NCBI GenBank assembly: GCA_045837725.1
Contig: JBEWZL010000296.1
Span: forward strand, 62,001-108,247
Direction of reading: 5' to 3'
From: Vermamoeba vermiformis
Taxonomy: Eukaryota
DNA: 46,247 nt
The notes under the pieces: model-generated
Told to the model about the DNA's origin: nothing
Seen by the model: only the letters and a program-made list of their open reading frames with translations
Databases searched by the model: none
Shown here: piece by piece, positions 3,528 through 44,800 of the stretch
Layout of the letters: every line of letters begins with the position of its first letter
Position numbering within the stretch: the stretch's first letter is position 1
Program-made: the position numbers and the translations under genes

Positions 3528-6500
3528 ATGGGTGACTTGCAACGAGAAGCACTAATCGATCATAACGGAAATAATGACAGTAACGAAGATCTGATCGAGG
3601 TCTCGTTAGCGACATTGAGATCAAGTCAATAATTAAAAAAGTGCGCCATTTTGCATTAATTAACGAATATAATCAATTTTGCTATGTTAATAGAAGGTTT
3701 TGTCAATTATTCGGTAAGATCAAGAAATAAAATATTTAAATCTAATCGTCACGATATTGCCTTGCTAATTTTTCATTGTATTAATTAGGTTACCAACGAA
3801 ACGAAATTATTAATCAGCATGTTTTTGAATTATACGGCGAGCTAACGGATTTCGGCGCCAAAGAAAAGATCTCGAAAGGTCTGACGAGCCACAAGGAAAA
3901 ATCAACGTCTCTCATATTATACCGAAAAGACAAAGTGCCTATGGAAGTATTTGTCCGAATATCTCCATTGAAGAAAGGTAATCAATTGCGATCCGTGCGC
4001 GGGAGATCGCGTGATTAAATTGTCTTCTTTAAAATTGCTCTTTACTTATCGTTATGGTACTTATAGTTAATTTATGACATAACCACGATATTCTTACAAT
4101 TTTTACTTGTCTTGGTAATTAGTTTCTTAATTTTGTTATTTAGATCCAGACACTATCGCCTTTCATTTGCTTACCGTCAAATACCTACTCAACTACCTAG
4201 TGATTATGAATTATTTTCACCTTCGAGTCCAAACTTGCGATCACCTTCTAAAGTCAAATCTGCTACAGTTAACACCGCTCCACAAAATGCAACGGACACA
4301 AGCGGCAAAGACGTCGTAATATCACTTCAACGTAATATAAAAATGGACGATATATCACCTATGGATTTAGAATGGGATATTTCATACGGCGTGGACATAA
4401 AGCTACCCAAGGAAACTCGATGCGGCAAATCCAAAACAATACACCGGAAGATTTTGCATTCTGTTCGTGCTTGTGCTAAACCTGGAGAACTACTTGCCAT
4501 TATGGGACCTACTGGTAGAATCAAATAATTTTTTGAGCAGATCAGTTTCCACTAACAATTGAAATGCAAAATTTAGGTTGCGGTAAAACAACTCTATTGA
4601 ATATTTTGGCGCAAAGAGCTAGAAGAGGCGTTAAAGGACAGCTATATGCGAACGGAGAAGTTCCGAATAAGAATTACAAACGAAAAATTGGTTACGTCTT
4701 ACAATCGGACATTTTCTTCGAGAATTTGACCGTAGAACAAACGCTAAATTTTCAAGCTGCTATGAGACTGCCTGCAGAACTCACTGATCAAGAACGGAAA
4801 GCCAAGGTAAGCAAATTTCAGCTCTGATGATGATTTGTCATTGTTACGCGGATGTGCTTTAAGAAACTCGACCATGGGACCTAAATACATCATTAATAGG
4901 TTCAAGATGTTATGGAGGTACTTAACATCACAAAAACACGCAATACTATCATTGGCGGTTATGCTCGCCGAGGAATTTCAGGAGGCGAGAAGAAGCGAGT
5001 CAATATCGGCAATCAACTGCTAACAAATCCGAGCATTTTATTCCTCGATGAACCTACTACAGGATTAGTAAGCATGTATATCATTTTTAAGTGCACATAC
5101 GCAACATTAGCTTCAGATCCGATCTACCGGATCCAGCTTTTTCTTGCTTGTTCTCGTAATTAACTCATATGCTCTATTTAGGACACTAGTACAGCATTGA
5201 GTCTTATGCTGACATTGAAAGAAATGGCGCGAGCAGGCATGACTATTGTAGCGACCATTCATCAACCGTCATCGCAGATCTTCGAACAATTCGACAAATT
5301 ACTTGTAAGCTTCGCATTCCATTTACTTATTAATATATGTTATTTTTTATCGTAGCTCGCTCAAATATTGAAAATGCGTTAAATTAACGTTATTATTTAT
5401 TAGTTAATGGTGGACGGCAACACCGTTTATTTTGGCGCCGCTAATGCAGCAATCAGTTATTTCAGCTCGATTGGCTTGAAATGTCCGAAGAACTATAATC
5501 CTGCCGACTTTATGAGTACGTAATTGATTAATAAGGCAATACCTTCATTAAGCTAACTGGTGACTAGTGGGACTGGTGCTCGAAGAAGAAATTAAACAAG
5601 AAGACATGTTAAAGAAGAAAATTATCAAAGATTGGCAAGAATATCAAAGAGACAGCAAGAATTATGAAAAACAATTCAAATATTTGACAAATGACACGAA
5701 CGGAGTAAGTAACGTTACAAATCATTCCAATACTCGTACTTATTACCCGCTTTAGGTCGATCAAGATGACAGTTCGGTCGAGTCAAAGCAAAAACAAAAG
5801 ATTAAGAAAGACTACGCGAGATCGTGGGGAGATCAATTCAAAACATTGTGGCTCCGTGCGATAATTCAAAGCAAAGGCGTTTATTTTGAAACAATACAGT
5901 ACATTCAACTAGCACTAGTCGTGGTACGTTAACTGTAGAAAAATATCTTTGACACGTGTCAACCTGTCAAGTGTCAAAACGTCGCTCCATTTTTTCACGC
6001 GATATTTTCAGTCTATTAACGTATCTTATTATAGTTAATCGTAAGTATATTGTGGCTTCAAACGCCAGCACGTGAAGATAGAATCAACGACATTATCGGC
6101 GTTATGTTCTTTTTGGCCATTTACAACATTGGATTCTTTCCCATGCTTTGTTCGCTCTTCAATTGTAAGTCACAATTTCCTTTTTTGGAATTAATCGTGA
6201 CATTTTGCAGTTCCACCCGAGCGCGATGTGATTATACGAGAGCGGTCAGAAGGCGCGTATTATCTCTCAGCCTACTTTGCTGCCAAAGCACTGAGCGACA
6301 TGCCCTTTTTGATCTTGTATCCATTTGCTTACGTCATTCCAACGTACTTCTTGGTTGGACTCGCGTATGACGCCGCAAAGTACGTACTAAATTTTCACAT
6401 CGGAAGCACAAACTCTAACTATTCTTTGCAGATTTTTCTATTTTTTGTTGCTGATCATGGTCGGATCCATTACGGCGACGGGTCTTGGTTTAGTCTTTAG

Positions 6501-7030
6501 CGCGGGATTTCCAGATGTGAGAAAGTCCCAAGTATTTGCTACTGTGGCCATGTTGTTCATGTACGATAAGTTTAACATTAGATCTAATACGAGATGTTAA
6601 GTGCTAACCTTGGCTTTCAGTTTATTGGCTGGCGGCTTTTACATCAAACTAGAGCTCATTCCTGCGTGGATTAGTTGGCTGCAGTATTTGTCGTACTTGA
6701 AGTACGCCCTTGATGTAAGTCTCGGTTTGACACGTGTCATATATATACTCTGTTTTGTTAAGTGACACGTGTCAAGTTGCAAAAGTCTTCTAACATTTCC
6801 AAATATAGTCATTGATCATCAGCCAGTTCACAGGCGCTACATTCGAACAAACACCACTTGTGACACAATTCGATGGCTACGATCCAATTCCCGGTGAACT
6901 CGTCATAGCATCGCGATCACTGACAGTGCCCTCAATGTGGGGCAGTTTTGCCGTGGTGATTGGTTGGGGCATTGCGTTCTGGGCCGTAGCATTTGTGTTG
7001 CTACGGAACTCGCTTAAACCACGCAATTAA
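3528..7030 (+). CDS. Half-size ABCG (White-family) transporter, NBD then TMD; 5' end uncertain, with a probable N-terminal PAS domain
   Basis: Walker A GPTG|CGKTT, signature ISGGEKKR, Walker [17 protein letters not shown] and YNPADF. TMD carries RERSEGAY and AGGFY...[16 protein letters not shown]. Stop at 7030. The core exons splice in frame. The start is either ATG 3528 (needs a frameshift near 4180) or ATG 4343. Confidence 0.9.
3611..4181 (+). other. PAS/PAC domain-coding exons (EAG/KCNH-like PAS) upstream of the ABCG core
   Basis: Exons (..3713, 3789-3977, 4144..) joined by GT-AG introns 3714-3788 and 3978-4143 give [88 protein letters not shown]. This fits the PAS pattern YVNxxFCxLxGY...E...YRKD...ISP. 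Confidence 0.8.
5950..5961. repeat. Palindrome TGACACGTGTCA (ABCG intron 5924-6034)
   Basis: Exact match, followed by extra TGTCAA and GTGTCAAAA half-sites. Confidence 0.95.
6728..6774. repeat. Two copies of palindrome TGACACGTGTCA (6728-6739 and 6763-6774; ABCG intron 6715-6808)
   Basis: Exact matches. Confidence 0.95.
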
Positions 7031-7141
7031 GACCTTGTTCAGCTTGTGGAGTTCATGGTAAGTTTATTCAAAATACACTAGGATAAGATACGGCGTAACA
7101 CTTAAGCTAGGCCGTGGACTCATGTCCTATTAGAGCTGTTG

Positions 7142-8432
7142 CTATTCGTTCTGGTTCAGTGGTGTCGGGCGGATTGCTCGTTGTGCTGCGGGCGTCCTAA
7201 AAAGTGTAGATGAGAGGGGTACGGTAAGAGCGCTCAGGGGTATGAACCGTGCTGGCGGCGTTGAAGTACGCTTGGGCAACACAAAAAAGTTGTGTGAGGC
7301 TTCAGGGACGTTTCTAATTTCTTTTTCAAAGTCCATCAACTGCCGCTTAAAGCCATTGTTCAACTTCGTCAAAATTTTCAATTCTTCTTCTATACGTCTC
7401 TTTGCTTCCTGTAGCGTCATTCTAAATAAAAAATTGCTTACTCACTTCCAAATAAGGCAATATTGCTGTACGTACCCTCGGTGCTTAATTAAATAGGCGT
7501 AAATTATAGCAACAGATCTCGACTGACCCATTTTGCAGTGCACTAATACACTACCAGAGACAAGGCCTTTCCAAATAAAATCAGTCAAATCATGCAGCTT
7601 GGGCATGATGTTCTCGTGTTCGCTGTCCTTAAATGGCTCTCTAAAAAAGATCCTGTTAATTAACGTGACACCAGGTAACTCTGGCAACTTACTTTTTGTA
7701 CGTAAACTGGAACGGAAGTTTACCATCGGTAAAAAATATATCTCGCTCGTAGTAATTGGATACCTTTTAGGCCACATTAACAATGTGCGTGACGTTCACT
7801 GACAATAGCCTGCAGTATTAAACGGCATTAGTTATTGGTGGAATATTCATTTAATACTAAAAACGTACCACTCGGAATTAATGGCGACATCAGCATTGCC
7901 TAAAAACAGACGAGACTCTGCTGTTATTTCAATTACTTCAATGCCTTGCTGAATATCGAATGGATGTAATGTCTCGCTGATCTGCCGTTCTGTTTTGATC
8001 GGAGTTAACTCGAGGTTGACTGGAGTTTCAGCTTTGTTGGGAGATTGCAAGAGCTCTGGATCAACTGCTATTTCATCCAAAGCGCCAAGATCGGATATAA
8101 ACGGCAAATCTTGAACTTGAAAATCAGTTGTTGGGAGCAGATCTGGCATTTCAGCGAGGATCTCGGATTTTTTGCTCTTGGCACGTTTCGGAGGCTTTGA
8201 TGCCTCTGAATCTTGTAGTGGCAACTTGCGTTTTCGATCTGCTGGCTTCTGGTAATCTTTCTTTGTCACTGCGGTTGTGTTTTCTTTGCCGATGATCCGT
8301 GATCTTTTTGGATTAGTTACGGAGCTCAAAAAAGTAATTGATATAAAAAAATTATTTACATACCATTTGCACGGGGTTAACCTCAGCAGAGCTTAAATCG
8401 TGATGCAAGCAAGTTGATGGATGTCTTGGCAT
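7142..8432 (-). CDS. Dual-specificity protein phosphatase (MKP-like/atypical DUSP)
   Basis: RLFLGNADVA and the catalytic loop VLVHCKMGQSRSVAIIYAYLIK, then MTLQEA...LNNGFKRQL. Basic NLS-like N-terminus (RKRK). The first exon is uncertain. Confidence 0.85.
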
Positions 8433-8705
8433 TAATTTCGGCTTAGTTTAATGCAGAAAATAAAATACATTAAGTGCAAAAATAATCATGTGATATTTAT
8501 TCTTACCAAAAGAAGTCATAACGTTTTAGTTTTCTGCCCGTTAAAAAACTGATCCAGATTAAACTAAACGGGTGACCTGAATTCCTCTTTTTGGCCAAAC
8601 CTACGATTGCATGAAAATATAAATATTAGGGCCATTGTGATTCTTCAACTTTACCTGATTTGGACAAATCACCAAATATTAATTTTTAGTCTTTGTTCTC
8701 GAGAA

Positions 8706-8744
8706 AAAAAAATTTCGTGAATGGTAAAAAATTTCGTGAATGGT
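8706..8744. repeat. Short tandem direct repeat, AAAAAATTTCGTGAATGGT x2
   Basis: Two adjacent 19-nt copies just past the stop codon of the minus-strand gene ending at 8750. Confidence 0.7.
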
Positions 8745-8749
8745 GTTTA

Positions 8750-11700
8750 TTATTTTGCTTTCACGTTGAACAATTGTTTCTCGCCATTATTGTACGTCAC
8801 GAGCAGCTCTGAAGAATTATGACCTGATTTGAAAGCCAATACTTCGCGCAAGTCATAGCGGACGCGAACTTTAGTCCTCTTTAAGAAATCGAGTGAAGGC
8901 AATACTGCTAGAGAACTGACAGCTAAACAAAAAATATAATTTTAGTAATTATTATGATAATCGTAAATTATTTGGCTTAATTATTTTTGGATTAGCTTAC
9001 CAGATTTGACGCGGAAAATTAACGGTGCAATGATGAAGTAACTAACAGCTGCGCAACCAACGCCAAAATAGAACCACTTTCTATTCTTCTTCACGAATCT
9101 TTCTATTTTAGCTTCAATTGTCGAGGATTGGACGATCTGTCGAATCCAGGTTAGACTTAGTCTTGCAACTGTATTTTTGAAGCTGAATAATTCTTACCTT
9201 CTTATCATTATTGTTTAATCGGTTAATTTCGTCGGTGAGCTAAATAAAGAATGAAGAATTAAAAAACAGATCGAGATCAAGAAAGTTGCAACGTACTCGT
9301 TGGATGTGCTTCTCTCGCTCAGCCAAAAGTGATTTAAACCGTTCAATTTCAACGTCTATATTATCGCCTGTAGTTTCTATGTGATTAGTACTCGATTGGC
9401 TGTTGTTAACTTCGAGCTGAAGAACGTTGACTTGTGTTTGCAATTGTTCATTGGCAGTTTCCTTATTTAGTAATGTCTCTTTGAGCAACTTGATCTCGTT
9501 ACGTAAAATTTCCATATTTGTACTGACTTTGGATTCGTCAGCGTTACTTTGCGTTAATTTCTTTCGCAGATCTCTTTCTCGTTCACTGAACGCTCTTTCC
9601 TTATTTAGTAATTCCGCTTCTTTTTCCTTCAATTGCGATTCTAATGTAATTATCGTGCTTTGTTGACTATTAATTTGATCTATTTTTAGCTTTATGTCAT
9701 TTTCTCGCTGAGCCAATTGATTTTCTTTTTCAGTCAACGCGGTTTCTAACTTGGAAATCGAAGCTTTGCTAGAATTCATTTGTTGCTCGAATTCTTTTTC
9801 TTTCTCGTTCAGTGAACTCTTCAAATTGCTGTTATTTTCTTCACTGCGTTTCAACTCTTCAGATCGAGTTTGCAGATCCGAACTGATCTTCGATGATTCT
9901 TCATATTTCCGCTTTAGTGCTTCTTCTAACTCGCTAATCTTTGCAGATTTTTCTTTAATTAACTGATCGTGATCTTTTTCATTTTGTTCCGTTGCAGATC
10001 TGACTTGATTTTCAAGGCTAGAAATAATTTCGTTCTTCTTAGTCAATTCTTCTTGTATCTGCGCTAATTTTTCTTGCAAGCTCTTCACTAACGCATCTTT
10101 CTCGTTAATTTTTGCTTCTCTTTCGCTCAATTCTTTTTGGACCAGATCCAATTTTTCTTCGAAATTTTTTCTCGTTGTAATTTCATTTTCTTTCAACTTC
10201 TTGTTCTCTTTTTTTAACTCGTCTAATTCATTATTCAATTCTTCATCAATTTTTTCTTGTTCGACCAAACTGTTTTTCGTCTGTTGCAGCATTTGTTTCA
10301 ACTGTTCAAAATTGCTCTTGTATTGTTCCGATTGCGTGGCCAATTTATCCTTCAGTTCGTTATTTTCCCTATTAACAATAAGCAAATTATTAACTGCTTT
10401 AAATTAAAGAACCATCGCTTACTTTTCCAACAAAGATTTTTGTTCGCGAACAGATCTGACTTCATTTTTGCGATTTTCAAGCTCAGCACGCACCTTTAAT
10501 TTTACCAACCGTTAAAATTATTATTAACTTTAGTATTAATATGAAATTACCTGTTGATTGCCTTCGTCTGATGCACGTAACTTTTCGAGCTCTGCTTGCA
10601 AATTGGCCGTGATCTCCTAAAAAGGAAATATTCAGATTAGTAGCAAATCTTATTAATGTTGCTATTATAGCGTACCTTTTGCTTCTCCAACTCTGCTTTC
10701 AACGTCGTCGTGCCTTCATTACACGGGGTCAAACTGCCGGTGACATTGTTCAACTGCGACTCTAAGCTCGCTTTGTTCTATTTTAAGCACCATTAATATA
10801 CTTAATGTAATATATAGGAATAATTTTGTACGTACTGCTTGCAAACTTTTAACTTGGTTCTGCAAGTCTTCGACTTGTTTGTGAAATTCTTCTTGCTGTG
10901 AACAAAAACGATCAGTTATTTCAATACGAATAATAAAATTGATAAAATTTCACTTACTTGCGCCGCTTGGACTTCCAAATCTTTCTTTTTGTTGAGCTAA
11001 AAAAAGAACGTGTCAAAAAAATGAAGTTGACATTTTTGGTTTCGTGAAAGACTTACAGCTGCAAATTTGATCAAGAACGGCACGAATTCTTCGTAATTTA
11101 GTTTTTCCGTGGTCTTTTTCCCACTCTCTTTGTACATCTCTTCGAGCACTGGATCGCTAATAGAAATACCTTGCGAGTCCAAAGTATTCTTGATATCATC
11201 GAATGTGATGTATCCATCGTCATCTGAATCAAATAGCATCGCGTACTGCTCCGCCGTTTCCCTAATAAGGAAATTACATTAGAATTAATGATTGCAAAAA
11301 TTTTTTGATTTGATCCAAAAAAGATCTGAAATTTTGTTAGACTTACTTGGAGGAAAAATCCGCTTCTAAAGGAGCGTTACTAAGCTTCGTGACATCAATC
11401 TTATTAATGACATTTAAGATTAAATCTGATTTTGACGGGGCTGACGGAACTTCAATCGGAAATTTCGTAAAAATCGTGGCAACGAAACCGATCAAATGCG
11501 CGTCTCCTTTCACGACGTCTTCAGCTGACACGAACTTTCTGCACTGAATTTTCTCGGCATTAGCAAGCATCGATTCAGCGCGATTTAATAAATTCTCGAT
11601 CTCGAGCGGAGATCTGTCGCATTGTTCTGGGGCTAGTTGATTCATCAAAACTGTCAAATTTTCACTATCCTATACATAAATAATAATAAATATTAGTCTA

Positions 11701-12767: not shown

Positions 12768-12924
12768 GATATTAAATTATTTTTTCGTCAAGAATTGTGC
12801 CGTCATGAATTTATGAATAATAAAAGAATAAATTGGGATACATTTAATTTTTGGGCGGGCCGTTTGACTTATTATTTTTTACACAAATGCAACGTTAACA
12901 TAATAGAAGGCACATTGCAATATC

Positions 12925-15492: not shown

Positions 15493-18400
15493 ATGAAGAA
15501 ATTATATTTATTTTTAGCGCTAGTACTATTTTCTAGCGCGATCTCCAATGTACGATGCGTCGACATTGAAGATCTGCTTTCAAAAATGTCTTTAAGAGAA
15601 AAAATTGGTCAGATGACTCAAGTAAGTATCTATCCTATACTATGTAGGAACCATATCACTGAACAATTTATCAGATCGCAGCTATTGTAATGTACCCCGA
15701 TGGAATTACCGTAGATCCGGGCATGGTCCGACAAGCTATCCAAACTTATGGCGTAGGCTCGATATATAATCACTACTACTTTGTCTCGTCACGAGGAACA
15801 GGTACGTCTCATCGTCCTTAGATTCTTTCGAAACGCACACATCTAGTTCGGAAAATTAATTTCAAATTTTTTATTTTTAGGCAATAGTGCTTGGACTATT
15901 GACGAGTGGCGTGATTTCACGGACATGTTGCAAGACATCGCCACGAACTCGACGGCCAATAAGATACCACTCATCTACGGTGTCGATGCTATTAACGGCG
16001 CTTCGTTTATTAAAAACGCAACGATATTTCCGCACGTAAGTGTTGGGCCAGATCTCGACGAAATTATTTCCCGAATTTGCAAAGTCTTATTGTCGGCTAA
16101 TATCACTATGCATAGAACTACGGTCTGGCTGCTACTTGGAATCTAGATCTGGCTCGTCAAGCCGCTTTCATTACCGCTAAAGATTGCCGAACTGTTGGCA
16201 TCAATTGGAGTTTTGCACCGACCGCGGATGTCGCCGTGCAACCTAACTGGGGTCGATTCTACGAGACTGTAAGTAACCACATCTCCTATAATTAGTCAAG
16301 ACTAGTCTAATGTCTGATTCAAAAGTTCGGAGACGATCCGGTTTTGATCTCGGAAATGGTCCGCGCCTCCATTCGAGGAGCGCAACAAAGCGACAACACG
16401 AACAAATTGTTCTGCAGACCTGAAGGCTCGAGCAATTATATGATGGCTTCTTGCGGCAAACACTTTATTGGCTACAGTCAACCTGACGGCGGATACGACA
16501 GAAGAAACGCAACGGTAAGTGTCAAAAACAGTATGACACGTGTCAAATATTCATTTGTCGGTCTTAGATTGCCGATTGGATGTTGGAGCGTTATCACTAT
16601 CCTCCCTTCCAAGTCGCCGTTGCTGAAAATGTAACGACGATGATGCTCAACTCCGTCGAATTCAACGGCACGCCCGTGCACATCAACAAAGCCTTGGTGA
16701 CTGATTTATTGAAGAACTCGTGGAATTTCCACGGATTTGTCGTGAGCGACTATCAATCGCTGTTGCAACTCACCATCAAGTACGACATTCCTTCGTACCG
16801 CGAGGCGATTCGATTGGCTATTTTGGCTGGTCTAGACATGTACATGGTGCCCTTGGACTTCTCCTTCGTTGATATTTTATACGACTTGGTGATGAACAAA
16901 GAGGTGCCAGAAGAATTGATCACCGATAGCGCGAGAAGAATTTTGACCGTGAAACAGAAACTCGGTTTGTTCGAGAACCCCTACACGTACCCCGACAACG
17001 TGTAAGTATATTGCTTGCATTATTCGAGCTATATAGCTAATTTATGTGTGTAGTCAAACTATTGGATCTGACGAGGACTTGCAAGTCGCGATGGACATTG
17101 CTCGTGAAGGCATTACGCTGTTGAAGAACGAGAATAACGCACTGCCACTCAAGGACGTCACCAAGGTGCTCGTGACAGGTCCAGCAAGCAACTCACTCAT
17201 GTGGCAGTCAGGCGCGTGGGTGTTCCATTGGCAAGGCGCTGAAAATGACGGCGAGTTCGATGGCCGTGGCAAGACTATCCTTGGTGCCGTGCAAGACACC
17301 TACGGTGCGGATAATGTCATTTGGGGCCTCGGAACTACTTACGATGCCCCTGTTGATGCTCAAAACTTGGTCGCGCAAGCTGGTCAAGTGGATGTGGTCA
17401 TTGTCGCTATTGGCGAACCTCCTGGTGCTGAAATGAGAAACGATATCGACGACTTGTAAGTAATACTACTCACGCATATTAATAATGCTTATTAATATTG
17501 TTTAGGCATTTCCCTGAAGCTCAGATCAACTTCGTCAATGACTTGGCTGCAGTGGCGAAGAAAATCGTTTTGGTTGTCGTAGCTGGTCGTCCTCGTTTGT
17601 TCCCTTCAGTCATTGACAAGGTCGATGCCATTCTCTACGCGTACTTGCCTGGTCCATGTAAGATTTATTTTGAATCCGCGGCGCGCGGCGAGGAAAAAGA
17701 GATTTCTAACTTTTTCTTTTAAATAGACGGCGGCGCCGTAATCACCGAAATTTTGACTGGAGCTACTAACCCGTAAGTTCTATTACTCGAAAATACCTTC
17801 GGAAATTCAAATAATTAATTACATGTCCCTAGATCTGGACGTTTGTCCTTTGCCTATCCAACCGCTAATGCCCAATTGTCTTACCAATACGGACAATACA
17901 AGCACGATGTTCAATGGGAGCGTGGCTTTGGCTTGTCATACACGACATTCTCGTACAGCAATCTGCAGCTCTCCGCCGACAAGATCTATGTAAGTTCATT
18001 CGCAGTACGAAAAACAATTCACATTTTTTAATTTTGCTTCACACCACAGAACAACGAGCAGATTCGTATTGCGATCGATGTCACGAATAATGGTACTGTT
18101 GATGGAAAAGAAGTCGTTCGTTTGAACTTTGCGGATCTGTTCAATTTTCCAGGTGAGGAATACTTGTTTATGCTCAAAAAATTCAGCAAAATCTCTTTGA
18201 AAGCTGGTAAGTATGACAATATTCAGCTCTTTCTATGTATAATCTTACGGTATCCTTTCAGGCGAAACTCAGACTGTCGAATTCTTGATCGCGCCATCCG
18301 ATCTGATCCACGCTGACACCGCTGATAGAATGAAACAAGGCGTAACTGTTAAGTTTAATATCAACGAGCAAATCACTGGTGATTTCCAGTTTATTGACCA

Positions 18401-18667: not shown

Positions 18668-18768
18668 AGTAGACTAGTTTAAGATATTGCCTTATCTGGA
18701 ATTGTCACGGCCCGTGCAAACACGGAGGCGGAGATTAAATCGATTCCGACTCCGTTAATTAAGCCAGG

Positions 18769-18830: not shown

Positions 18831-20804
18831 ATGTTAATATCAATTGGTGTCGTATTTGCCTTGGTTGGCATGTCAATCGTGCTGCTTCTCCTCGATCGAC
18901 TTCGATCCAGAATGGTAAACAGATTTGACATTAGAATTAATTGCAATAAAATATTAATTATTATGCTATCTCAGCGCCGAATGGAGAAACTGCTTGGACA
19001 CTTGCCCGGTCCCAAGCCGAATCCAATTTTCGGACACTTCTTCGAGCTTGTTAAAAAGAAGGCTTATGCTAAGGCATTTGATCAATTTATTCCACAATAT
19101 GGCGATATTGTAAGTTATTTTATTTGACTTTGTGACCCTTCGTAATCCGGATCTAATCCAACGGCAGTTCGCTTTCTACGGTTTCTCTCCGGAGGTTGTG
19201 CTCAACAACCCCGAATATATCAAGACTATGTACCTCGCTTCCAACGAGCGCGGAACTGAGTTGGTAAAACCCATCATTGAAACAGCAGGAAGTACGGCAA
19301 CACATTTAATTTGTCATCCCAATAATATAATAATTCAATTAATAGTTGATGGTATCTTCACCATGTCGCATAATGATAAATGGAAATTCCACCGTCGTCT
19401 GATTTCTCCGAGTAAGTCGCACTACGATACACGAAGATTCAATGTGACATTTTTGACACTTTGACACCATTGCAGTCTTCCAAGCCTCGAACTTGCAAAA
19501 AACCGATTGGATTATGATCGAAAAGGTCGAGAAGCTGATCCAACGATGGAAGTCATTAGCGAAAGCCAACGGCGGTCAAGTCGAGCTCCGTTCTCTCGTC
19601 GAGTTCCAAAACTTGACAGTGGACGCTATTGGCCAAGCTGCCTTCGGTTACGACTTTAACTGTAAGTATTAATCTGGCGTAATGAATATTTATGGATGAC
19701 TAATCCTGAACTCCATTTAGCCATCAATGGTAACAACTCCGACTTGGTCAAGGCTTTCGATTTGATTTTGAACAACGCTGGTGAACGTATTAAGTACGGT
19801 CTTGTGCCTTACTGGCGCTGGCTCCCGTTCTTGCCCGTGAACGGTCAGCTGAAGAAAGCCAGAGAGCTCGTGCAAACTACTATCTCCCAAATGATTGATA
19901 CCAAGTTCGAAAACTACAAGAAACAAAAGGCTGAAGGCAAATTGAGCGACGAGAGACTCGATTTGATGGATCTGTTGTTGCGTGCCTCGCAAGAAAACGA
20001 TGAAGGAAAATTCTCCACTGATGATTTGTACGCTGAATGCTTCACTTTCGCGTAAGTAGTTCTCCTTGAACATTTGACACGTGTCATCAAGTCGCTAATA
20101 TCAACCATTCTTTAGCGTCGCTGGTAACGAAACTAGCGCTATTTCTTTGACTTTCTTGTTCAACTTGCTCGGTAACAACCACGCAGAACAACAAAAGGTT
20201 CGTGCCACTCAATTAACTTACTATATACAACATATTAACGTATGCCCTTATAGCTCCGCGATGAAGTTAACAAGGCTATTGGCACCAAGACTCCCACCAT
20301 TCAAGAGCTCAACGAAATTTCGTACTTGGACATGTGCATCAAGGAGGCCTTGAGAATCTACCCCGTCGCGTACATGAACAGACGTGAAGTGCAAGAAGAC
20401 CTGAAGATCGGTGGTTACCTCGTTCCTAAAGGCACTTCATTGCTGTACTCTGCCAACTACATCAACAACGACGAACGATACTGGAAAGAGCCTAGAAAGT
20501 TCAACCCTGAGCGATTCTCGAAGGATGAAGAAGAAAAGAGACCTATGCACGCATTCACGCCATTCGGTGGTGGGTAAGTTCCGAAATTTTATCAATTTTA
20601 TCTTCTTTCTAAATTTGTCGTTTTAGTTTGCGTGTCTGCGTCGGAAAAACTTTCGCATTGACTGAAATGAAATTCGCTACTGCTATGCTGATCAGAGACT
20701 TCCAATTCGACTCAACCAAGTGGGGCTTGACCGACACATCTGAACAATTCGTGTTGAGACCTGCCACTGTTTGCCCGTTCATTGTAAAACCAATCAATAA
20801 CTAA
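18831..20804 (+). CDS. Cytochrome P450 (ER-anchored, CYP4-clan-like)
   Basis: N-terminal TM, hinge LPGPKPNPIFGH, WKFHRR, I-helix AGNETS, EALR, PERF and heme motif PFGGG|LRVCVG. Confidence 0.95.
20075..20086. repeat. Palindrome TGACACGTGTCA (P450 intron 20052-20115)
   Basis: Exact match. Confidence 0.95.
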
Positions 20805-20946: not shown

Positions 20947-23900
20947 ATGGGAGCCAAGACAATTATATTGCCTCTGCTCTCGGGCTTGGCTATCTATGCC
21001 GTTCTCATAGCTTCCTTAATGAAATCCGTTCCTTTGGACTCAAGAAATAGCTTTGACTTGGCCGTGGTACGTGAAAAATATGATAATATGTAATCACAAT
21101 AAAAATATGAATAATCAAGTAAATGGAGAACCACTAGTGAAGAAAAAGTTTTTTTAATATTAAATAGCACTAAATATTATTTTATTATTTAGATGCAAGT
21201 TCAAAAATTGGCAGATCTTGCTGGTGCTGTTAAATTATTGAAAACTATTGGTGTATTTTTGGACGCAAGAAAATATCACGATCTGCCATCAAATTTTACT
21301 TTGCCGGGCTTAAAATCAACTGTAGACTTGTACACAGATGAGTAAGTATTAATCATCAATAAGATAATGCCTTTTGACACCTACCAAGATTTGGAGTGCC
21401 GCACATCTACGCCAAAAACACGCACGATCTGTACATGGCGTTTGGCTACATTCAAGCCCGTGATCGAATATGGCAAATGGAATTTCTTAGACTATTATCA
21501 ACAGGTACACGATGGATTTCTATTTAAGTATTATTAGAGACAAAATTTTTTTCTCGTATTAACGGATGTACCTTTCAAGGCCAATTGAGTTCCGTGTTGG
21601 GTCCTAAAACCTTGACTATGGACCGTGTGTTTAGAACTCTCGGTCTCGCTTGGCGTGCTAAGAACGATATTGACGTCTTGCAGAAAAAATACGTGCAGAG
21701 AATTGAAGCATTCGCGGCAGGTACAAAAATTAATCAAATTAAACTAAATTCATAACATTATTATACGCTGTATTCAGTATTAATATGATCGATAGGTATC
21801 AACGAGTTTTTGAAGACCGAGCAATTGCCGCTCGAGTTTTTATTGTTGGGTCATAAACCAAAACCTTTTACGCCTCAAGACGTTGCTGCTTGTGGTAGAT
21901 CGAGTAAGTTATTTGCAAATACACTGTAATTACCAATATTCAAACAATTTTATCGATATATTGAAATTTCAATATTCATCTTAAATTTTTATGATTAAAA
22001 CAATTATTTCGTACTATTATCAATTAATATTAATGTAAATATGATTGTTATAGTCGGGTGGATATTAGGCGTCGGAGATCAAGTTGAAATTGTTCGTCAA
22101 CTTCAAAATGAAACTTTGAACGCGGATGTGATCGAAGCAATTAGAGCTATTTATCCGGACTATCATCCTACTACTATCACCGAGAAACACGAGTTCAATC
22201 CTATTCTCGAGCACGGCATTGATATTAATTCTTTGTTGCCTCCCTACACGAGAGCGAAAGGCGCCAGCAACAGCTGGGCGTTGAATGGCAAATTAACCGC
22301 TTCGGGCAAACCAATCTTGGCTAGCGATCCTCATTTGCGTAAGTAACAATTACTGAATATTACTATTACACTTCATTTGCTTTATTATTGGGAACTGTAA
22401 CGTACTTCCGAAAAAGGAAATCAATTCTATGTTTATTTTTATGCGCAAATTTTCAGCGCTAGCTACCATTGTAATTATATATACCCTTATTATTATTTGA
22501 ATTTTAATGAACGGTTTCTTGATTATTAACGTTTTAAATTTCGGATCTGATTTTTTATTGTTAGTTCAAACCACGCCTGGTCAATGGTACTTAGTGCATC
22601 TCGTAAACGAAGACCCTAAAGAGCCTATTAACGTCATCGGTGCGAGCACGGGTGCTTCTCCGATCGTGGGTATTGGTCATAACGACAAGATTGGGTGGGG
22701 AATTACCGTCTCTATGGTGGACACCAAGGACAATTTCATCGAAAAATTCTTCCACAACGGCACTTACGAGTACTTGGGCAAGGCAATGTCGCCCAGAATT
22801 CGCGAGGAGGTCATTCAAATTAAAGGTCAAGCACCGCACGTTGAAAAAGTTATCGAGGTAAGCAAAGCAAATACAAATTAACCGTTAATTATCAGTGTCT
22901 ATTATTTACTCAACATATTAGTATGCATAACTGGCCTAATATGATGGCTGCACAGCTTTAAATTGTTTCTTTATTAATGTTTTTTTTTCGGCGAATTTCT
23001 TCGGTTTATTTATTATTCTTCATGTAACTTACGTTCTCCTAATAGACAGTTCATGGCCCTATTATCTCCAACTTGTCTCCGTTCTACAACGAGAGTTTGA
23101 ATGCACGCACTGCTGGCGACGATCACTATTACGCCATTGCTTTTGCTTCAACGCTAACTGACGCTGTAAATACAATCAATTATATTTGATATGCTACATA
23201 TTAACCTCTATTAATAGGACCATTCAGTCGGTTTCCAAGGATTTTTTGAAATGAACGAAGCGCAAGACTGGGACTCGTGGGTCAACGGTCTTTCAAAACT
23301 CGATTACGTCTCGTTCAATTTTGTGTATTCGGACTTGAAGGGCAATATCGGCTATTATTTGAGCGGAAAAGTCCCGAGACGAGCGGATGTAAGTCCAAAA
23401 TGATTTTTTACCGCAGGATCTGACCGACTATTTTTAGAAAATGGACGGTATGTCTCCGATGCAAGGTTGGACTGGACTACATGATTGGCGCGGATATATT
23501 CCATTCGATGGTACGCATTAGAATAACCGAACTAGATCCGGTTCAAAAAAACAATGCTCATTTAATTTCTTAGAACATCCTTGGGCGTTGAATCCTAAAG
23601 ACAATTTTGTCGTGTCAGCGAATAACAAGATTGCCCCTTCAAACTTCAAGCATTACTTGGTAAGCTAGGCAATATACTTTTTGATGCAAATTCTGCCTGA
23701 AAACTGACCCTTTTTTCCATAATAGGGCAATTTATTTGCAAATGGAGTTCGTGCGAAAAGAATTCGCGATCAATTGAGCGGAAAAACAGGACTGACCGTG
23801 AATGACACGATGACACTTCAAAATGACGTGGTGTCGCAATGGGCCATTGAATTCACTGAATTGTTGCTCAAAGCTGTCGACGAGAGTCAATTGACTAATT

Positions 23901-24911
23901 TGGAAAAAGAAGCATTGCAGTTGTTGAAGAACTGGAACGGACTGATGGATCGAGATCTGGTCCAGCCCACCATCTACCAGGCCACTCGTCGTACGTTGAG
24001 TCGCAGTATTATCTTCCCACACGTCAATGCAAGTCTGCACTACATTATGTACGGTGTTAATTTGACACCTGTCTCAGCTCAGAGCGAGGTACGGAATGAC
24101 ACGTGTCAAAGTGTCAAAAAAACTTCGGTGTTTTAAAAAACTAACTACGATTGAATCTAGTTTATTGGCCACGACTCAGTGCGTATTGTCAAGTTGTTGC
24201 GATCACCTGATCTAGCTGTCGTAAGTACTTGCCTAATTAGGAAAGTACGAGCTAACCTTTTAATTTTCAGTGGAAGAAGTTCGGTGGTTACAAAACAGCT
24301 GTGACCAATGCCTTCAAGAACACAATTCGCGACTTGTCTAAATTCGTAAGTACTCGTAGAATTCTTGCAATGTTTGCACTGGCCACTGACTATCGATCAC
24401 GTGACAGTTCGGTGAAAATACTAACAAATGGACTTGGGGTACCGTGCACAAACTGAGCTTCGTGCACACCATGGCTGAAGTCAAGCCACTCGATAAAAGT
24501 AAGTTTTCATGAACCACTCGTTCACTGAAAAAAAACCAAACCTGAATTCCTGGCAGTTTTTGAAGTGGGTCCGTTCCCCATGTCCGGTGATGAAGACACC
24601 GTGGCCATGTGTTCAGTGCGCTATCAGACCACGTGGAATGATTTTTCCGCTCGTGGTGGCGCAGGGTACCGACAAATTCTCGATTTTAATAATTTCGACG
24701 AGTCTGTGTGGATTTCTGTCCCTGGCCAGTCTGGAAGAATTTCTAGCCCTCATCATCAGTACGTGCGCGATATTTCCTAATTTGGCAACTGAGACTAACA
24801 TCTTTTTTCAGCGATCAAATCGAGAGCTGGTACACCGGCAAATACAACAAGATGCTCTATTCTAAGGAGAAGATTGTAGCGTCAATGAAACACACCAAGA
24901 TTATGCCATAA
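20947..24911 (+). CDS. Penicillin acylase / acyl-homoserine-lactone acylase family Ntn hydrolase (peptidase S45)
   Basis: N-terminal signal or anchor. Motifs DE|FGVPHIYA, FGYIQARDRIWQME, autocatalytic GA-SNSW...SGKPILASDPHL, GHNDKIGWGIT, NFVYSDLKGNIGY, SANN and PGQSG. Confidence 0.93.
24097..24108. repeat. Palindrome TGACACGTGTCA (acylase intron 24089-24160)
   Basis: Exact match, followed by AAGTGTCAAAAA. Confidence 0.95.
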
Positions 24912-25025: not shown

Positions 25026-28000
25026 CTAAAATAGACCCAATTTCTTCTTCTCAAGCAATTGTTTCCATTTAGGGACCTTTGCGAATTCAGCGCGGGTCAT
25101 GCCGAACACTTTGTCGAATTCTTCGTCGGTCAAATGCACTTCGAGTTGAGATCTGTCGCATTCTTTTGGCGCATTTGTCTTCAACACTTCGTACGGGTAC
25201 TTCTGATAGAATACTTGTAAAGTCTCGGTAACGCCGGCAGCGGGCTTTTGTTCCGGAGCAGCTCCGTCAGTCTTTGCAGCTGTTTGTGGTGCAGTGCCAC
25301 TTTGGGCAGCAGCTTCTGTGACAGGTGCCGTGGGATCTTCCCAGTCATGGAACAGTGCTTTGAAGCGCAATGGCTCTTTGCCTAATAAGGAAATGGTGTC
25401 AGCTCAAAAGTTCATGAAAAATACTTCCAAATACGTAAATCTTTTTCGTACCTTCTTCGATGACGGAGGTATTCATTTCAATGCCTCGATTTTCACGCTC
25501 TTTCAGCAGTGTCAAGTATTCAGCGGCGATTTCAAGGGCACTTCGCTTCTTCATTTCAGTCGACTTGGATCCGACCCACACTGTTGACGGACCATAAGCA
25601 ACACTGTATTAACACCTTTACGAGTTTACTTACCGAAGAGTTCAAAGTAGGCGTCGAGTATGAAAATGTCTTTGGACAGCAGATCTTCTTGGTAAAACTC
25701 GTAGATTTCATTGGCCTTTGAAAGTTGGTCAGTCACACGACTTGAAAAATCACCGGCTGTGACTTACAGAGAATACCGCATTCGCTGTTTTAGCAGCAGT
25801 GCAGTGGAACAAATGCATTTTGAGCAGTGGTGACGACAGGAACTCGTCATCAGCGTAAGGTTTTTTGCCGCCAATCGCCTCCCAGAACTCGGCCGGTTCT
25901 TCGCCTTCGAGGATTTTGACCACGAGTTTAATTTCCTAAAAAGGCAAAGCGTTTAGAATTGACAGAAATACTTGCAATCTTTTCGCACTTACAATGCCGC
26001 GAGTCTCGTCAAACTCGTTCATGTTGTTAGCGAGTTCGTCAATCCAGCCGATCTTGTCCATGTCAAGCCCCAGTGCCTTGCCGTACCACACGTATTGCAT
26101 CTTCGTGTCTGTATTGCGCACCACGAATGCATCGCGTGAGTTCAAACGAGAAGCAGACTAACAATGACATCGTGAGACAAACATCGGAAGTGATGTCATT
26201 AAAGTACGTACGACTGTCTTGGTTTGAATGGCGTGGATGGGCAAGATGTCAGTGCCGCGCAAGTGATACATGGCGACCTTGTCCAATGCATCGCCTTTGT
26301 GACCACGGTACACAATGTACAGGCCTTGGAATGCCAACAGGAACTGCAAGGTCTCTTTGTTTTGGAAAATCATTTGCTGCAATTAACAAGTTAGCCCCGT
26401 CTTATCCTACTTCCTAATAAGGAAATAAATTAAATTGACCGTACCTGCACGATGAACAAGGTGCGTGAGTAATGGCGGTAGAGATCTTCGGTGAATTTGA
26501 CAGCATAGCCCTGCTCGAGCTTGTTGCTGTCTTTGCCTTGCCAGGTCCAAATAATGTAGCGCAAAGCATTGTTCTTCTTGTACTCGTAGAGAATGATGTA
26601 GCATTGGCCCGAATAGAAATGACCGAACTCTTCTTCAGGTACTTCAATCTTGAATGGAGCGCGTTAGTTAGGATTATTTATGGCCCTTCTATCCTTACCT
26701 TGGTGCGCTTGTCCTTGACCATCCAGACCTTGAGCGTGCCTTCACCGTCAGGACAGGGCACGTCATCTTCAGGACGCAAGTTGAGCAACATAGTCTCGAC
26801 ATTGAATTTGTTCGAGTAAACTTTCTTAACGTTCAACGACTCGTGTTGACGGAACATCTACAATGACACGTGTCAACAGCTAAATGTGAGTCAAATGAGG
26901 ACGTACCTTTTTGATGGCCGATTGATGACTCAAATCAGGCCAGTCTGCAAATCGTTCTCTGAATAAGAAAGGCTCGCCACCCTGACCAACCATGAACATT
27001 TGTGCCCACGGAGCACGTGTCTCTTGCTTGAAAAGTTTCTTCGTTTCACCCTTGAGAGCATCACGCTTGATCTCCGAGCAATCTCGACCGTACCAGCCAT
27101 AGACTTCATTGCCGCAGTCCAGCACGTAGATTTCAGTGTCAACGAGCATGTCCATCAACAACTTCTTTTCGGGCTGAAGAACGACTTCGAGTCTCGTTTG
27201 ACCGTTGTCTTCGACTTCCACTTTGTACAGCTTGGCATGGTCCATCATGTCCTTCTCGTACTGCTCGTCATCACCGCCCTCTTCGCGAGGAGCAATAGTC
27301 TCAGGCTAGTAAATGTCAGCACGTGATTACTTCCGTAGCTGGATCTTACCTTGCCGCCAAGAGCTTTCCAGAACGCTTCTTGGTCCTCGTCCTTGGCGTA
27401 CTTGTCGACGGTCACGATGGTCGCGTGTGATGCTCGCTCGTGGTCGCGAATCATTGTAGCAATGCCAACTGCCTTAGACTTCTCCACTGCATTGGCCTTG
27501 GCGCCGTTCCACACGTAGATCACCTTGTCTAGATCCAGCACAAAAGCATCGCCTTCATTCAAGGACTTGGCCGATACCTGACAAGCTCGTTAGATTGACT
27601 TTCAGAGCATGGCTAAGTGCTGCTTGAACTTACCTCAACCTCGCGAACCCACACACGACGCTTGCCCTTGCAGTGCATCAATCGCACGCGGTGTACCTGT
27701 TCTTGTGCCTTCTTAACAGCAACTTTGTACCTGCGAAGAGTTAGCAACGCGACTTAAAAAAAGTGGGCGCGAGTGATCGTACATTTTAGCGGTCTCTTGG
27801 TTGTCGCGCTCTCTATCCCATTTTCGCGCGCTGGCGAGCACTTCTTTCTGGTTTTGTGCTTTTCTTTGCTCTTGTTCCTGTGCTCAGATTAGTCCTTGAC
27901 AAATGGCTAAAGTAACACTTACAATGCGCTCTTTTTCTTTCCTGCTTTCTCCGGCTTGGAAGAACTGATCGAGAGGACTGCTCGTGGTGGCAGGTGTTGT

Positions 28001-35110: not shown

Positions 35111-35139
35111 TTTCCATGATTTTAAAGTACATAAAGCAT

Positions 35140-41843: not shown

Positions 41844-44800
41844 TTACTTGAATAATTTCTTACGAAACAAAAAGACAGCTCCTCCGATCAAAGCAGCAGA
41901 GGCGATGATCGAAGCTGCGGTCAGAAGAGGTGTCCAAGACTTGCCGCTGCTTGTGCTGTCAGTGTTGCTAGGCTCGGGCTTCTTAGCAGTCTTGGCCTCT
42001 TCGGCGGCACGAGCAGCTTGTTGAGCGCGTGCACGAGCGGTTTCTTTGGCTTGTTTCAAGAACGGGTAAGTGTACGTCAAGTCCTTCAACAAGCCTTCGA
42101 ACTCTTCGATGAGCTGCTTTCTCAACTGCTCGTTGGTGATATCGGGATTGGCTTCGATGAGGGGCAGGGCGTAATCAGACCAACCAACGGTGATAACGAT
42201 GAGCAAAGGATCATCGGGATCGAAGTCTGGGTCCTTCAATAAGGCGAGAGTGCCGCGCATGATGGATTCGTAGCGCTGTTGATCGTCTTCCCAGTAGTCC
42301 ACTCGCTCTTCAGCTACTTTGCGGCAGTGAGCTTTGTATTCCTCGAGCGGTGCCTGAGGATCGAGAGGCTCTTCAGCGGAGAGGTACCACCACAACAAGA
42401 CCTCCAGCACTTCGCGGTCTTGATTGCCAAAGCGCGGGTTGCGCAATACACCACCGTAGTACTTGGCACCGCAATATTGACGAGCAGCCCAGATGTCGTC
42501 GGGGGTGGCGTCAGTGCCCTTGTTGTTGCTCTCGTCGCCTTCGCTTTCGAGAGTTTGTTCGGTGCTGTCGAGGTACGAATCAGCACCGAAAATGGTGTGG
42601 AACTCGGCACGTTTCTTGTCACGCTCTTCTTCAAAGTCCTTGCGACGAACGGCCTTCTCTTTGATGGCACGTGCATAGCGGTGACTGCACACCAAGGTTA
42701 GCCTACCAACAAAAATAAAATATCTATGTGCTTACCGGTAATACAAGCGATAGGAGACCAACAGGGCCAAGTCAACGCGATCTTGCCACGTTGGGTTCTC
42801 GGGGTCAGGGAAGTCAATGCGATGTTGACGCGCCAAGTTTTGCACGTGTCTCTTGATAAGAGGATGATCATCAGGGAAGTCTCGATCGGCTACAAACATT
42901 ATGAATGAGGAAATTGAGCATGGCAGAAAATCTTTCCTTAACGTACCAATAAAAATGGCTGAATTGGCGTCGTAGACGTGATTTTGAGCTTCCAATGTTC
43001 GCTTTTTCTAAAGCAAGCAGTTAGTACGCAATGAAGGTGCATTGTATGGGGATTACCAAGGACGGATCTTTCTCTTCGGCGGCCATGCGCTTCTCGCGTT
43101 CTTTCAACAAGTACGAGTTGTACTGGCTGGCGAGCATCAACAACAAGTTGTTGCGGACCAAGTTGAGCATTTGAGGCAGAGGGACATTGGTGTCGATGGG
43201 CAGTTGCAAGTCATTGATGACACGTGTCAACACGTTCTTAATCTCGGGTCTGTTTTCAGCAACAGCTCTGCAGCAATAAGTTAGACCTCACGCACTAGTG
43301 GAAGTGTTTAGGGTACGTACTGTCTGGTATTTTCAGTCTCGAGCACTTCGATCTTTCCAAACAACCATTCCATGAACTCTCTGAGGCGCTCGGTGGGGTC
43401 ACGAACCTTCTCAGCCTCTTTGCCCTCGTGTTCTTCACCCTCGGCATGTTCGTGATGGTCCTCGTGATCCTCGTGGTTCTCTTTAGTCTCTTCCTTTTGC
43501 TCGGACTTCTTTTCGTCGTGCTCTTTTTCGTAGTAGTCCATCGCACCCATCAGCTCTCTCTCAACTTCTTCGGGATCCTCGTCGTCAACCAATTGCTCCT
43601 CGAAGTCTTGAACTGCACGCGGAAGGTAAACATTATATTATAAATGTAGTTAAAGGCTAATTACTTACTGACTTGGCTGTACAACTTGAAGGGCCACTTT
43701 GAGTTGACCTCTTCGTCCTTCTCAAGCTCGCGCAAGTAATTGAGAATATCAAACTCGAATGGTTTTTCACCGAAGTTGACACGGCACTTATTGTCGAGAG
43801 TTCTAATGCCGACAGTCGGGTACATGTGCAACAAGTTGCGCACACGCTTGGCAGGTGAGCCGAGCATCACACCGTTGCGCGTGATGAAGATTTCTTTCTT
43901 GGCGAAATTGATACCGAGACCAACTGGAGCACGGTTAGTACTATTACATTGTTTAACTCCCGTTGATACGTACTCGTGTCGCCAACTTGCCACACTTCGG
44001 AGAAATTAAGACCGAACGGACGTTGGCTGAAGAAACATCCATCGTCAGCGTGAAGGCCGTAAGAGTCTTTGCCCCAACCAGGCATGGCGCGGGCGTATTT
44101 CTTCAACGCCAAACCAATGCCAATAACGCTGTTGAGGTGTTAATAAAGCTGGATTAATTTCGGGCGAATTACTTACGGCTCGCTATCTTTGCCAAACTCT
44201 TCGACGGTCAATTCGTAATAGGCCACAGCGAAGTTGACCATGGGCAAGGGATAGAGCTTATATTTTCCCTGAACGGCGTGTGTGAGTTAAAGAAATTAAA
44301 TAGGTGGAGCGGCGATAGAGACACGCGTGACAGATCTTGAGAAAATTAATTGAAAAGGATATGACCGCCTCAATACGGGTGTTGATGGAGTCAGTTGGGG
44401 CCACGAAGTGCAACGAGTTTTCATCTGCGTCAATTGGCCGGACCAAAGCAGAATCTTCAGATCGAATTACCAACTTGTTGTGGAAAATTCGATTGTAAAA
44501 GTAGTTTAGCACCTTATATTCGCGTTTCCAATTAATGTTGGCAGCGATAGATTCTATCTTCTTAAATTCTACGGTAGAGTATTAGAACGGGACCGAAAAC
44601 GAACTGATCGTTCAATGAATCTGCGCGTAAATATTTTAATTAAGCTTGGAAAATTTAATTAAGGCACAATCGCTACGAAGTCTTTCAGAAGGTAGCTTAT
44701 TAGCCACAAAGAAAAATTTCAGAAATATTTCTAGCTAAAAGGGAATAAATATGTTTTCGATTCTCCGAATAGTACTTACTTTCAGGCGATAGGTTCCATT

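Follow-up and report, generated by a model that had tools for sequence, protein, structure and literature searches.

An invariant 12-nucleotide palindrome recurring in short introns of a Vermamoeba vermiformis genomic segment

Known short elements and the Vermamoeba palindrome

The bacterial repetitive extragenic palindromes (REP) and bacterial interspersed mosaic elements (BIME) are short, high-copy palindromic words of non-coding DNA that occur singly or in direct or inverted clusters; they are imperfect, 20–40 nt long, and tied to RAYT transposases. We know of nothing comparable in eukaryotes. Here we analyze a 46,247-nt stretch of DNA from the amoeba Vermamoeba vermiformis (assembly GCA_045837725.1, contig JBEWZL010000296.1, positions 62,001–108,247, forward strand; the whole stretch is referred to as the window), in which the exact 12-nt palindrome TGACACGTGTCA recurs, mostly in short introns of unrelated genes and in part accompanied by single copies of its half (half-words, called satellites where they lie beside the palindrome). 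The element shares features with several described systems and differs from each of them.

The nearest geometric precedent is the TALE-homeodomain site TGACAGCTGTCA of TGIF1 and MEIS, which, like the amoeba word, consists of two TTGACA half-sites placed head to head with a 2-bp centre, and the TGIF1 homeodomain was crystallised as two monomers on ATTGACAGCTGTCAAT (PMC6158717). As given there, this site and the 14-nt sequence TTGACACGTGTCAA at the first amoeba copy differ only in the central two base pairs (GC there, CG here). The outer T and A flanks match this copy, and lone half-words with a TGTCA core lie near the amoeba palindromes. Unlike the TGIF1/MEIS site, the amoeba word is invariant and is located in introns of gene bodies rather than in promoters, and its binder is hypothetical. 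TALE genes occur in Amoebozoa.

E-box and G-box elements and the ABRE-type (abscisic acid-responsive) ACGTGTC sites bound by bHLH and bZIP proteins have in common with the amoeba word the CACGTG core and the ACGT centre. Unlike these elements, the amoeba satellites keep TGTCAA and not CACGTG, and no copy is found at a promoter; because the satellites keep TGTCAA, a protein reading TGACA fits better than one reading an E-box. Introner-like elements and introners derived from miniature inverted-repeat transposable elements (MITEs) resemble the present case, in which an aquatic protist carries a common sequence, in either orientation, within the introns of genes that are unrelated. In contrast to introners, however, only 12–30 nt rather than the whole intron are shared here, there are no terminal repeats and no clear target duplication, and the splice sites lie outside the repeat, with donors and acceptors unrelated to it. 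Finally, TTGACAC fits the spliceosomal branch consensus yUrAy followed by AC and is found at branch-site distance in other introns of the window, whereas the full palindrome is mostly found 35–79 nt from the acceptor, with a second half that plays no part in branch recognition. Giardia and Trichomonas have an extended branch-to-acceptor motif, ACTAACACACAG.

Frequency and placement of the palindrome

Exact copies of TGACACGTGTCA start at positions 5950, 6728, 6763, 16534, 20075, 24097, 26864, and 43218, the same eight as in a preliminary description of this DNA. The 12-mer is highly non-random and exceeds its chance frequency by far, as that description had estimated: it was absent from all of 100 dinucleotide-preserving shuffles of the window and had a mean count of 0.01 (maximum 1) in 100 runs of a third-order Markov simulation. 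It ranks first among all 12-mers of the window by number of repeats and is the only palindrome of 10 or more letters with more than two occurrences. All eight occurrences of ACACGTGT are embedded within the full 12-mer. The window contains no version of the word with one mismatch and only two strings with two mismatches (5965 and 24063), both adjoining exact copies, while variants with insertions or deletions are not above the level of simulated sequences in an edit-distance comparison based on totals only. The sequence reads TGACA-CG-TGTCA, which bears out the description of a CACGTG core with TGACA half-sites; the core is present in 8 of 8 copies, and 12 further CACGTG sites in the window are without the palindrome flanks.

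Gene models were obtained with a Viterbi gene finder combining splice-signal scores with codon log-odds, the latter derived from long Pfam-supported frames as training set. Introns in the window are short (median 58 nt), with GTAAGT or GTACGT donors and CTAAC-like branch sites. Seven copies fall in six introns: 5924–6034, 6715–6808 (two copies), 16515–16567, 20052–20115, 24089–24160, and, on the minus strand, 26858–26906. This agrees with the seven intronic copies in five genes on both strands that had been proposed, with the villin-like intron 26858–26906 supported by the gene model alone. Removal of the two ABCG introns (5924–6034 and 6715–6808) and the amidase intron 24089–24160 in silico gives gap-free alignments to the related sequences P0003 and P0004, whose source contigs (2.6–6 kb) are transcript-like. 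Pfam profile coordinates continue across the GH3 intron 16515–16567, from 183 to 193, and the P450 Pfam match stops at profile position 270 before intron 20052–20115, after which the next exon opens with the I-helix VAGNETS. The one copy previously called exonic (43218) indeed lies in an F-box/SPRY exon, and its peptide KNVLTRVINDLQ is present without gaps in the relatives P0001 and P0002. A further gene-finder call, intron 23991–24077, was rejected because it is contradicted by Pfam and by the orthologue P0004. The palindrome copies and related half-words are as follows.

5950..5961, palindrome copy 1, ABCG intron 5924–6034, 26 nt after the donor; the only copy with palindromy over 14 nt (TTGACACGTGTCAA)
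5964..5979 (+), satellite half-words CTGTCAA and GTGTCAAAA, in tandem with the right half of copy 1
6728..6739, palindrome copy 2, ABCG intron 6715–6808, 13 nt after the donor
6763..6774, palindrome copy 3, ABCG intron 6715–6808, separated from copy 2 by 23 nt
11010..11018 (−), single half-word (sense TTTTGACAC, then GT), intron 10997–11056, 13 nt before the acceptor
16519..16528 (+), satellite GTGTCAAAAA, which overlaps GTAAGT, the GH3 intron donor
16534..16545, palindrome copy 4, GH3 intron 16515–16567
19450..19467 (+), tandem half-words TTTTTGACACTTTGACAC, at the branch-site position of P450 intron 19412–19475
20075..20086, palindrome copy 5, P450 intron 20052–20115, directly upstream of the I-helix AGNETS exon
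21371..21380 (+), single half-word TTTTGACAC, amidase intron 21342–21388, 8 nt before the acceptor
24097..24108, palindrome copy 6, penicillin-amidase intron 24089–24160, 8 nt downstream of its GTACGG donor
24111..24123 (+), satellite GTGTCAAAAAAAC, in tandem with the right half of copy 6
25396..25402 (−), single half-word (sense CTGACAC, then CATT), villin-like intron 25382–25451, 14 nt before the acceptor
26864..26875, palindrome copy 7, villin-like intron 26858–26906 (minus strand), ending 6 nt before the acceptor
43218..43229, palindrome copy 8, coding exon of the F-box/SPRY gene (minus strand), encoding part of NVLTRVIND

A near-palindrome, TTGACACCTGTCTC, is located at 24062–24075 in the amidase exon just 5′ of the palindrome intron; it encodes part of NLTPVS, a peptide conserved in P0004.

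Reads from three RNA runs carrying the same species label (X20–X22) were also placed on the window. There were 70, 39, and 72 such reads out of about 13 million records each, mostly 95–99% alike and fitting in part; RNA runs of this label are given as 5–13% diverged from the window, and X20–X22 derive from a diverged relative. The reads show splicing at 19110–19167 (loose end) and 24499–24556 (joint), and none of those placed bridges a palindrome intron.

According to the corrected annotation, 69.2% of the window is exon, 19.9% intron, and 10.9% intergenic. With a uniform spread as the null hypothesis, the probability that at least 7 of 8 copies are intronic is 8 × 10−5. When the comparison is confined to non-coding DNA, where all copies are intronic, the difference becomes marginal, with p = 0.047 for 7 copies and p = 0.073 for 6 independent loci. 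None of the eight copies is intergenic, as had been noted, though the probability of this outcome is 0.40 with intergenic DNA making up only ~11% of the window. The window therefore shows an exclusion of the palindrome from coding sequence and only hints at a preference for introns over intergenic DNA. The earlier statement that the word is concentrated in introns holds against a uniform spread and is marginal against intergenic DNA, and given the p values for non-coding DNA it mainly means that the word is kept out of coding sequence. Promoters hold none of the eight copies, which all lie within transcription units at roughly 1–3 kb from the gene start. DNA contigs assembled from sequencing run X1 contain the palindrome at three other loci, which also look like introns, although this is anecdotal and not a count. 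One of these contigs, in reverse complement, has a GTACGT donor, 8 nt, and then the palindrome, and the remaining two have branch-site-like words after it.

Flanking sequence, half-words, and folding

The flanks of the palindrome had been described as otherwise unrelated, which proved incorrect. The same letter is found on both sides in 6 of 8 copies, such that one orientation reads TT-palindrome-T (p ≈ 7 × 10−4), and T precedes TGACAC on at least one strand in all eight (p ≈ 0.005). Extra GTGTCAA(AA) half-words are present in three palindrome introns (5964–5979, 16519–16528, and 24111–24123), in tandem with the right half, and three of the four lone sense GTGTCA words in introns fall inside the six palindrome introns. 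Read in reverse complement, the 18-mer TTTTTGACACTTTGACAC at 19450 matches copy 6 together with its satellite (from 24103) exactly. The asymmetric TT...T flank, the satellite half-words in three introns, and the branch-site half-words in four introns are additions to the preliminary description. As to its claim of no target-site duplication and no conventional MITE, terminal inverted repeats are missing and direct repeats of 2 nt flank only 2 of 8 copies, but the shared single letter in 6 of 8 qualifies the former part. Apart from a 5-nt arm in intron 20052–20115, the flanks contain no further inverted repeats, and in an all-against-all comparison of introns the palindrome introns (49–111 nt long) score 14–18.5, which corresponds to the palindrome and a few letters. 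A transposon excision footprint was considered and rejected, since no direct repeats flank the palindrome.

Lone or tandem TGACAC words in the sense orientation are restricted to positions 8–16 nt before acceptors (5 words in 4 other introns, a tally made after the false intron 23991–24077 was dropped). Hexamers derived from the palindrome are as strongly enriched in introns as donor and branch hexamers, with TGACAC found 13 times compared to 1.4 expected in a table that includes the false intron. The dinucleotide AC directly follows the branch site in 6 of 17 cases of the TGAC type compared with 2 of 39 of the TAAC type. We examined the palindrome introns for yUrAy located ~8–40 nt from the acceptor with no AG between, and the palindrome supplies such a word in 2 of 6 introns, 26858–26906 and 16515–16567. 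In the former, copy 7 ends 6 nt before the acceptor and its TTGAC is therefore likely the branch site; in the latter, there is no yTrAy branch candidate other than copy 4. In the other four introns, AGs and better branch sites intervene between the word and the acceptor, which are 35–79 nt apart. The 3′ ends of introns 26858–26906 and 19412–19475 are alike save for an extra GTGT and one substitution.

Introns of the window also share sequences unrelated to the palindrome. Introns 10896–10957 (minus strand, CH/EF-hand gene) and 20574–20626 (plus strand, P450) are homologous in sense orientation, sharing GTAAGT followed by an identical 19-mer and a similar 3′ end, and such homologous introns in unrelated genes hint that in this genome intron sequence may be copied from one gene to another. 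The 14-mer CCTAATAAGGAAAT is present at three positions (11261, 25381, and 26413); its reverse complement ATTTCCTTATTAGG spans the acceptor end of the minus-strand introns at 11261 and 25381 and constitutes a second shared intron-end word.

Under steady neutral decay, exact and one-mismatch copies should be about equally numerous, but the introns contain seven of the former and none of the latter, so that the copies are either very young or under selection. No gain or loss of 12 nt at the six palindrome sites covered by X1 appears among the indels listed for this run, which speaks against extreme youth. The peptide encoded by the exonic copy is common to relatives at 91–93% identity, and this copy is therefore not young. 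The X1 contigs (covering 5600–25599 of the window) differ from the window at many sites, often with two depth classes (e.g., 287 of 699), as if two haplotypes or strains were present.

At the RNA level, the folding of a single palindrome is limited to a stem of 4 bp closing an ACGU loop. In predicted folds, UGACAC pairs with a nearby GUGUCA in three introns, and copies 2 and 3 pair with each other (~20 bp) in 6715–6808. Compared with full shuffles, the two ABCG introns have folding z-scores of −3.85 and −3.54, while the rest range from −1.43 to +1.49. When the palindrome, donor, and acceptor were held fixed and the remainder shuffled, only 5924–6034 was unusual (z = −2.83, 2 of 500), the other five introns ranging from −0.26 to +1.46. 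A general selected RNA structure beyond the palindrome is thus unsupported, being absent in 5 of 6 introns; covariation among copies is impossible, as all are invariant. A search of the window for Rfam families gave no matches; on this ground, and because such short introns leave too little room, an intronic small nucleolar RNA or riboswitch was rejected. So were mirror introns on the antisense strand, where no acceptable acceptors were seen by eye.

Possible explanations and wider context

These results lead us to favour, tentatively and with less than even confidence, the explanation that a dimeric protein with TTGACA half-sites recognises the 12-mer as double-stranded DNA and that selection keeps the site. 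Each monomer would read one TTGACA(C) half-site, the halves being arranged head to head with a CG centre (TTGACA-CG-TGTCAA), and adjacent single half-words would add monomer sites. The sites would occupy non-coding DNA inside a gene-dense genome, mostly introns, and since most of the available non-coding DNA is intronic they would lie inside transcription units and have an intragenic role, regulatory or architectural. The non-randomness, invariance, palindromy, half-site clusters, and position of the word are observed, and we infer from them that a protein binds it, that DNA rather than RNA is the target, and what the binding would do. We favour this reading because the palindrome is spacer-free, perfect, and invariant, half-sites cluster in either order, RNA folding offers no support, an exonic copy is tolerated, and the TGIF1/MEIS palindrome provides a geometric precedent. 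The exonic copy stays in the mRNA of relatives, so a DNA word fits better than a splicing signal, and the 7:0 ratio of exact to one-mismatch copies in introns argues for constraint.

Several observations weigh against a protein-binding site. The binding protein is only a hypothetical one, postulated from the sequence. Sites of ordinary transcription factors normally have degenerate variants, and none were seen for TGACACGTGTCA. Every copy is mid-gene, 1–3 kb inside, with none at a promoter, and 7 of 7 non-coding copies are intronic (p = 0.047–0.073), as the three additional X1 contexts also appear to be. The half-word coincides with a weak branch-site word that is over-used here (AC after TGAC in 6 of 17 cases vs 2 of 39 for TAAC), an overlap that a DNA site would have to treat as coincidence. 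For a symmetric homodimer, the asymmetric TT...T flank of six of the eight copies is unexpected.

The main rival, only slightly less likely in our judgement, is that the palindrome is a tiny dispersed repeat (a micro-MITE, REP-like, or introner-like module) built from TTGACAC words, which would be copied in either orientation and survive where it is spliced out or harmless. The palindrome would then be recognised by a moving enzyme or as a DNA hairpin, and its copies would be identical by descent. Identical copies with no decayed relatives are what such a repeat predicts, as is the 18-nt inverted identity between 19450 and 24103, and the same-letter flanks of six of the eight copies might reflect a target duplication of 1 bp or a unit of 13–14 nt. 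However, no internal part is enclosed by terminal inverted repeats, a target duplication of at least 2 bp is found in only 2 of 8 copies, and sharing of flanks beyond TT...T is estimated to be about at chance level for AT-rich flanks. Three palindrome introns (111, 94, and 72 nt) exceed the median of 58 nt, and the clear homology of another intron pair in unrelated genes suggests that intron sequence gets copied; on the other hand, the palindrome introns are unrelated to each other outside the palindrome and its satellites. The X1 data point both ways. Contigs from other loci have the palindrome with neighbouring half-words, a joint connects 5978 to 24097 (shorter side, 22 letters), and there are loose ends at positions 5950, 5962, and 24121, whereas the indels listed include no 12-nt presence/absence difference at the six sites. 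The exonic copy, whose peptide is found in relatives at 91–93% identity, is not young, and no mechanism is known that mobilises units of 12–30 bp in eukaryotes.

An intronic element acting at the RNA level appears improbable. UUGACAC would in this case be an extended weak branch-site word fused to its exact complement, modulating splicing as an auxiliary or decoy branch site or by pairing with a second copy or a GUGUCAA satellite. The intronic location of all seven non-coding copies, the confinement of lone sense TGACAC to 8–16 nt before acceptors (5 words, 4 introns), and its over-representation among TGAC-type branch sites (5 of 16 vs an expected 1/16, p = 0.002) are consistent with this notion, and AC after the branch-site C would lengthen the pairing with the GU preceding GUAGUA in U2 small nuclear RNA. 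The palindrome contains the only or best branch candidate in 16515–16567 and 26858–26906, but a better one lies downstream in 4 of 6 introns, where the palindrome is 35–79 nt from the acceptor. Likewise, UGACAC/GUGUCA stems are predicted in three introns and two copies pair in 6715–6808, yet a loopless palindrome makes a poor hairpin, its invariance gives no covariation, and with the palindrome fixed the flanks add structure in only one of six introns (z = −2.83; others −0.26 to +1.46). Moreover, neither the GUGUCA second half nor the palindromy itself has an explanation in RNA, and the exonic copy is retained in mRNA. Of the three roles that the preliminary description had put forward, the protein site and the mobile repeat are kept at the strengths given above, and the RNA hairpin is weakened, as only 1 of 6 introns beats its shuffles. 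We regard as very unlikely a recurrent local mutation, in which a template switch or a 4-nt inverted insertion (GTGT) repeatedly turns the branch module TTGACACCAT into TTGACACGTGTCAT, leaving a palindrome with neither function nor mobility. The 3′ end of 26858–26906 (TTGACACGTGTCATTGTAG) does equal that of 19412–19475 (TTGACACCATTGCAG) save for GTGT and one substitution, TGACACCAT(T) is found at two branch sites (19462 and, on the minus strand, 25396), and T follows 6 of 8 copies, as CAT. However, the word is at the branch-site position in just 2 of 6 palindrome introns, the arms are always 6 nt (7 in one copy) where variable arms would be expected, the eight palindromes outnumber the two supposed precursors, and other branch words such as CTAAC have spawned no palindromes. 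Chance, base composition, or an assembly artefact has nothing in its favour except the AT-rich intron context and is already refuted by the empty dinucleotide shuffles (0 of 100), the Markov mean of 0.01, and the independent X1 DNA contigs, which cover the region with no difference listed at six sites.

The same word is found in other DNA. A metagenome scan for two palindrome copies 5–35 nt apart, a query not suited to finding relatives, recovered the paired palindrome in at least 120 unrelated stretches, with a GC content of 0.17–0.77 among the matches listed. They include iteron-like arrays (10–11 nt gaps), operator-like arrangements, pairs in high-GC contigs, tandem repeats, and a repeat family of one assembly; contig L101 has a plant-like, promoter-like triple of the 12-mer. 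None of the stretches listed showed homology to the window by blastn or tblastx, and the 12-mer appears to serve as a recognition word in many systems, which for the amoeba is an analogy only. In AT-rich contigs (L026, positions 4480–5140, and also L025, L059, and L088; GC 0.27), two inverted arrays of three copies with 23-bp spacing flank ~430 bp of very AT-rich DNA, and L026 and L059 have almost no open reading frames of 90 or more amino acids in 10 kb; these arrays could be an origin-like or promoter-like structure. The palindrome with satellite gave no matches in viral contigs and three in genome contigs, all Guptibacillus and unrelated to the window. Searches for DNA encoding P0003 relatives in genome contigs (86 pattern matches) and P0004 relatives in viral contigs (3 pattern matches) yielded none that were confirmed. 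In the literature, the letters of the 12-mer matched Ebola-virus papers only, ACACGTGT combined with 'intron' gave no such element among the matches listed, and queries on introners with palindromes, chytrids, or Amoebozoa returned nothing relevant. The accessible portion of the Vermamoeba genome paper has no mention of 'palindrom' or 'motif' (PMC7125106).

Pfam matches in the open frames of the window comprise a PAS-ABCG transporter, an AI-2E-type transporter, a GH3 glycosidase, a P450, a penicillin amidase, two tandem actins, a dual-specificity phosphatase, a CH/EF-hand coiled-coil protein, a villin/gelsolin protein, a kinase, a RhoGAP/PX protein, a formate/nitrite transporter, a CPSase, and the F-box/SPRY protein. 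Three window proteins have close relatives at 90–93% identity, one of which is a EukProt transcript of Vermamoeba vermiformis, and the GC content of the window (~0.42) is consistent with the 41.7% reported for this species (PMC7125106). The window thus belongs to a Vermamoeba-like amoeba and not to a fungus. The PAS exon (3785–4015) and the ABCG half-transporter form one gene (3602–7030, plus strand); the alignment with its orthologue P0003 (802 aa), which combines PAS, ABC_tran, and ABC2_membrane domains, extends over 3602–7027. The PAS-ABCG fusion is unusual. A PDB search with two short ABCG exons gave no matches. The tandem actin-family genes (62–1327 and 1846–3276, plus strand) have equal intron positions and exact exon stretches of 20–29 nt in common, while their introns have diverged. 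The penicillin-amidase (20947–24911, plus strand) and AI-2E-transporter (12925–14765, plus strand) genes are rich in short spliceosomal introns, with about 17 in the amidase. Both families are mainly bacterial, which suggests old gene transfer followed by intron gain.

Considered jointly, the palindrome and its TTGACAC satellites may, as a tentative proposal, represent a new eukaryotic short interspersed palindromic element, either a REP-like micro-repeat or a genome-wide intragenic docking site. The REP-like version would copy itself among introns in either orientation and carry a branch-site word on both strands. In the docking-site version, a DNA-bound dimer would be coupled to transcription and splicing of short introns. 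The V. vermiformis genome size is quoted as 59.5 Mb (PMC7125106), and extending 8 copies per 46 kb to this size would yield thousands of copies, which is an extrapolation and not a count. If the density holds genome-wide, the palindrome would be among the most frequent exact words in an amoeba genome, and the 12-mer would be a simple tag by which Vermamoeba-type DNA could be recognised in metagenomes from water. An invariant intragenic palindrome of this kind might point to a general DNA-binding factor of Amoebozoa, illustrate the colonisation of introns by short repeats, or link branch-site words to symmetry at the DNA level.

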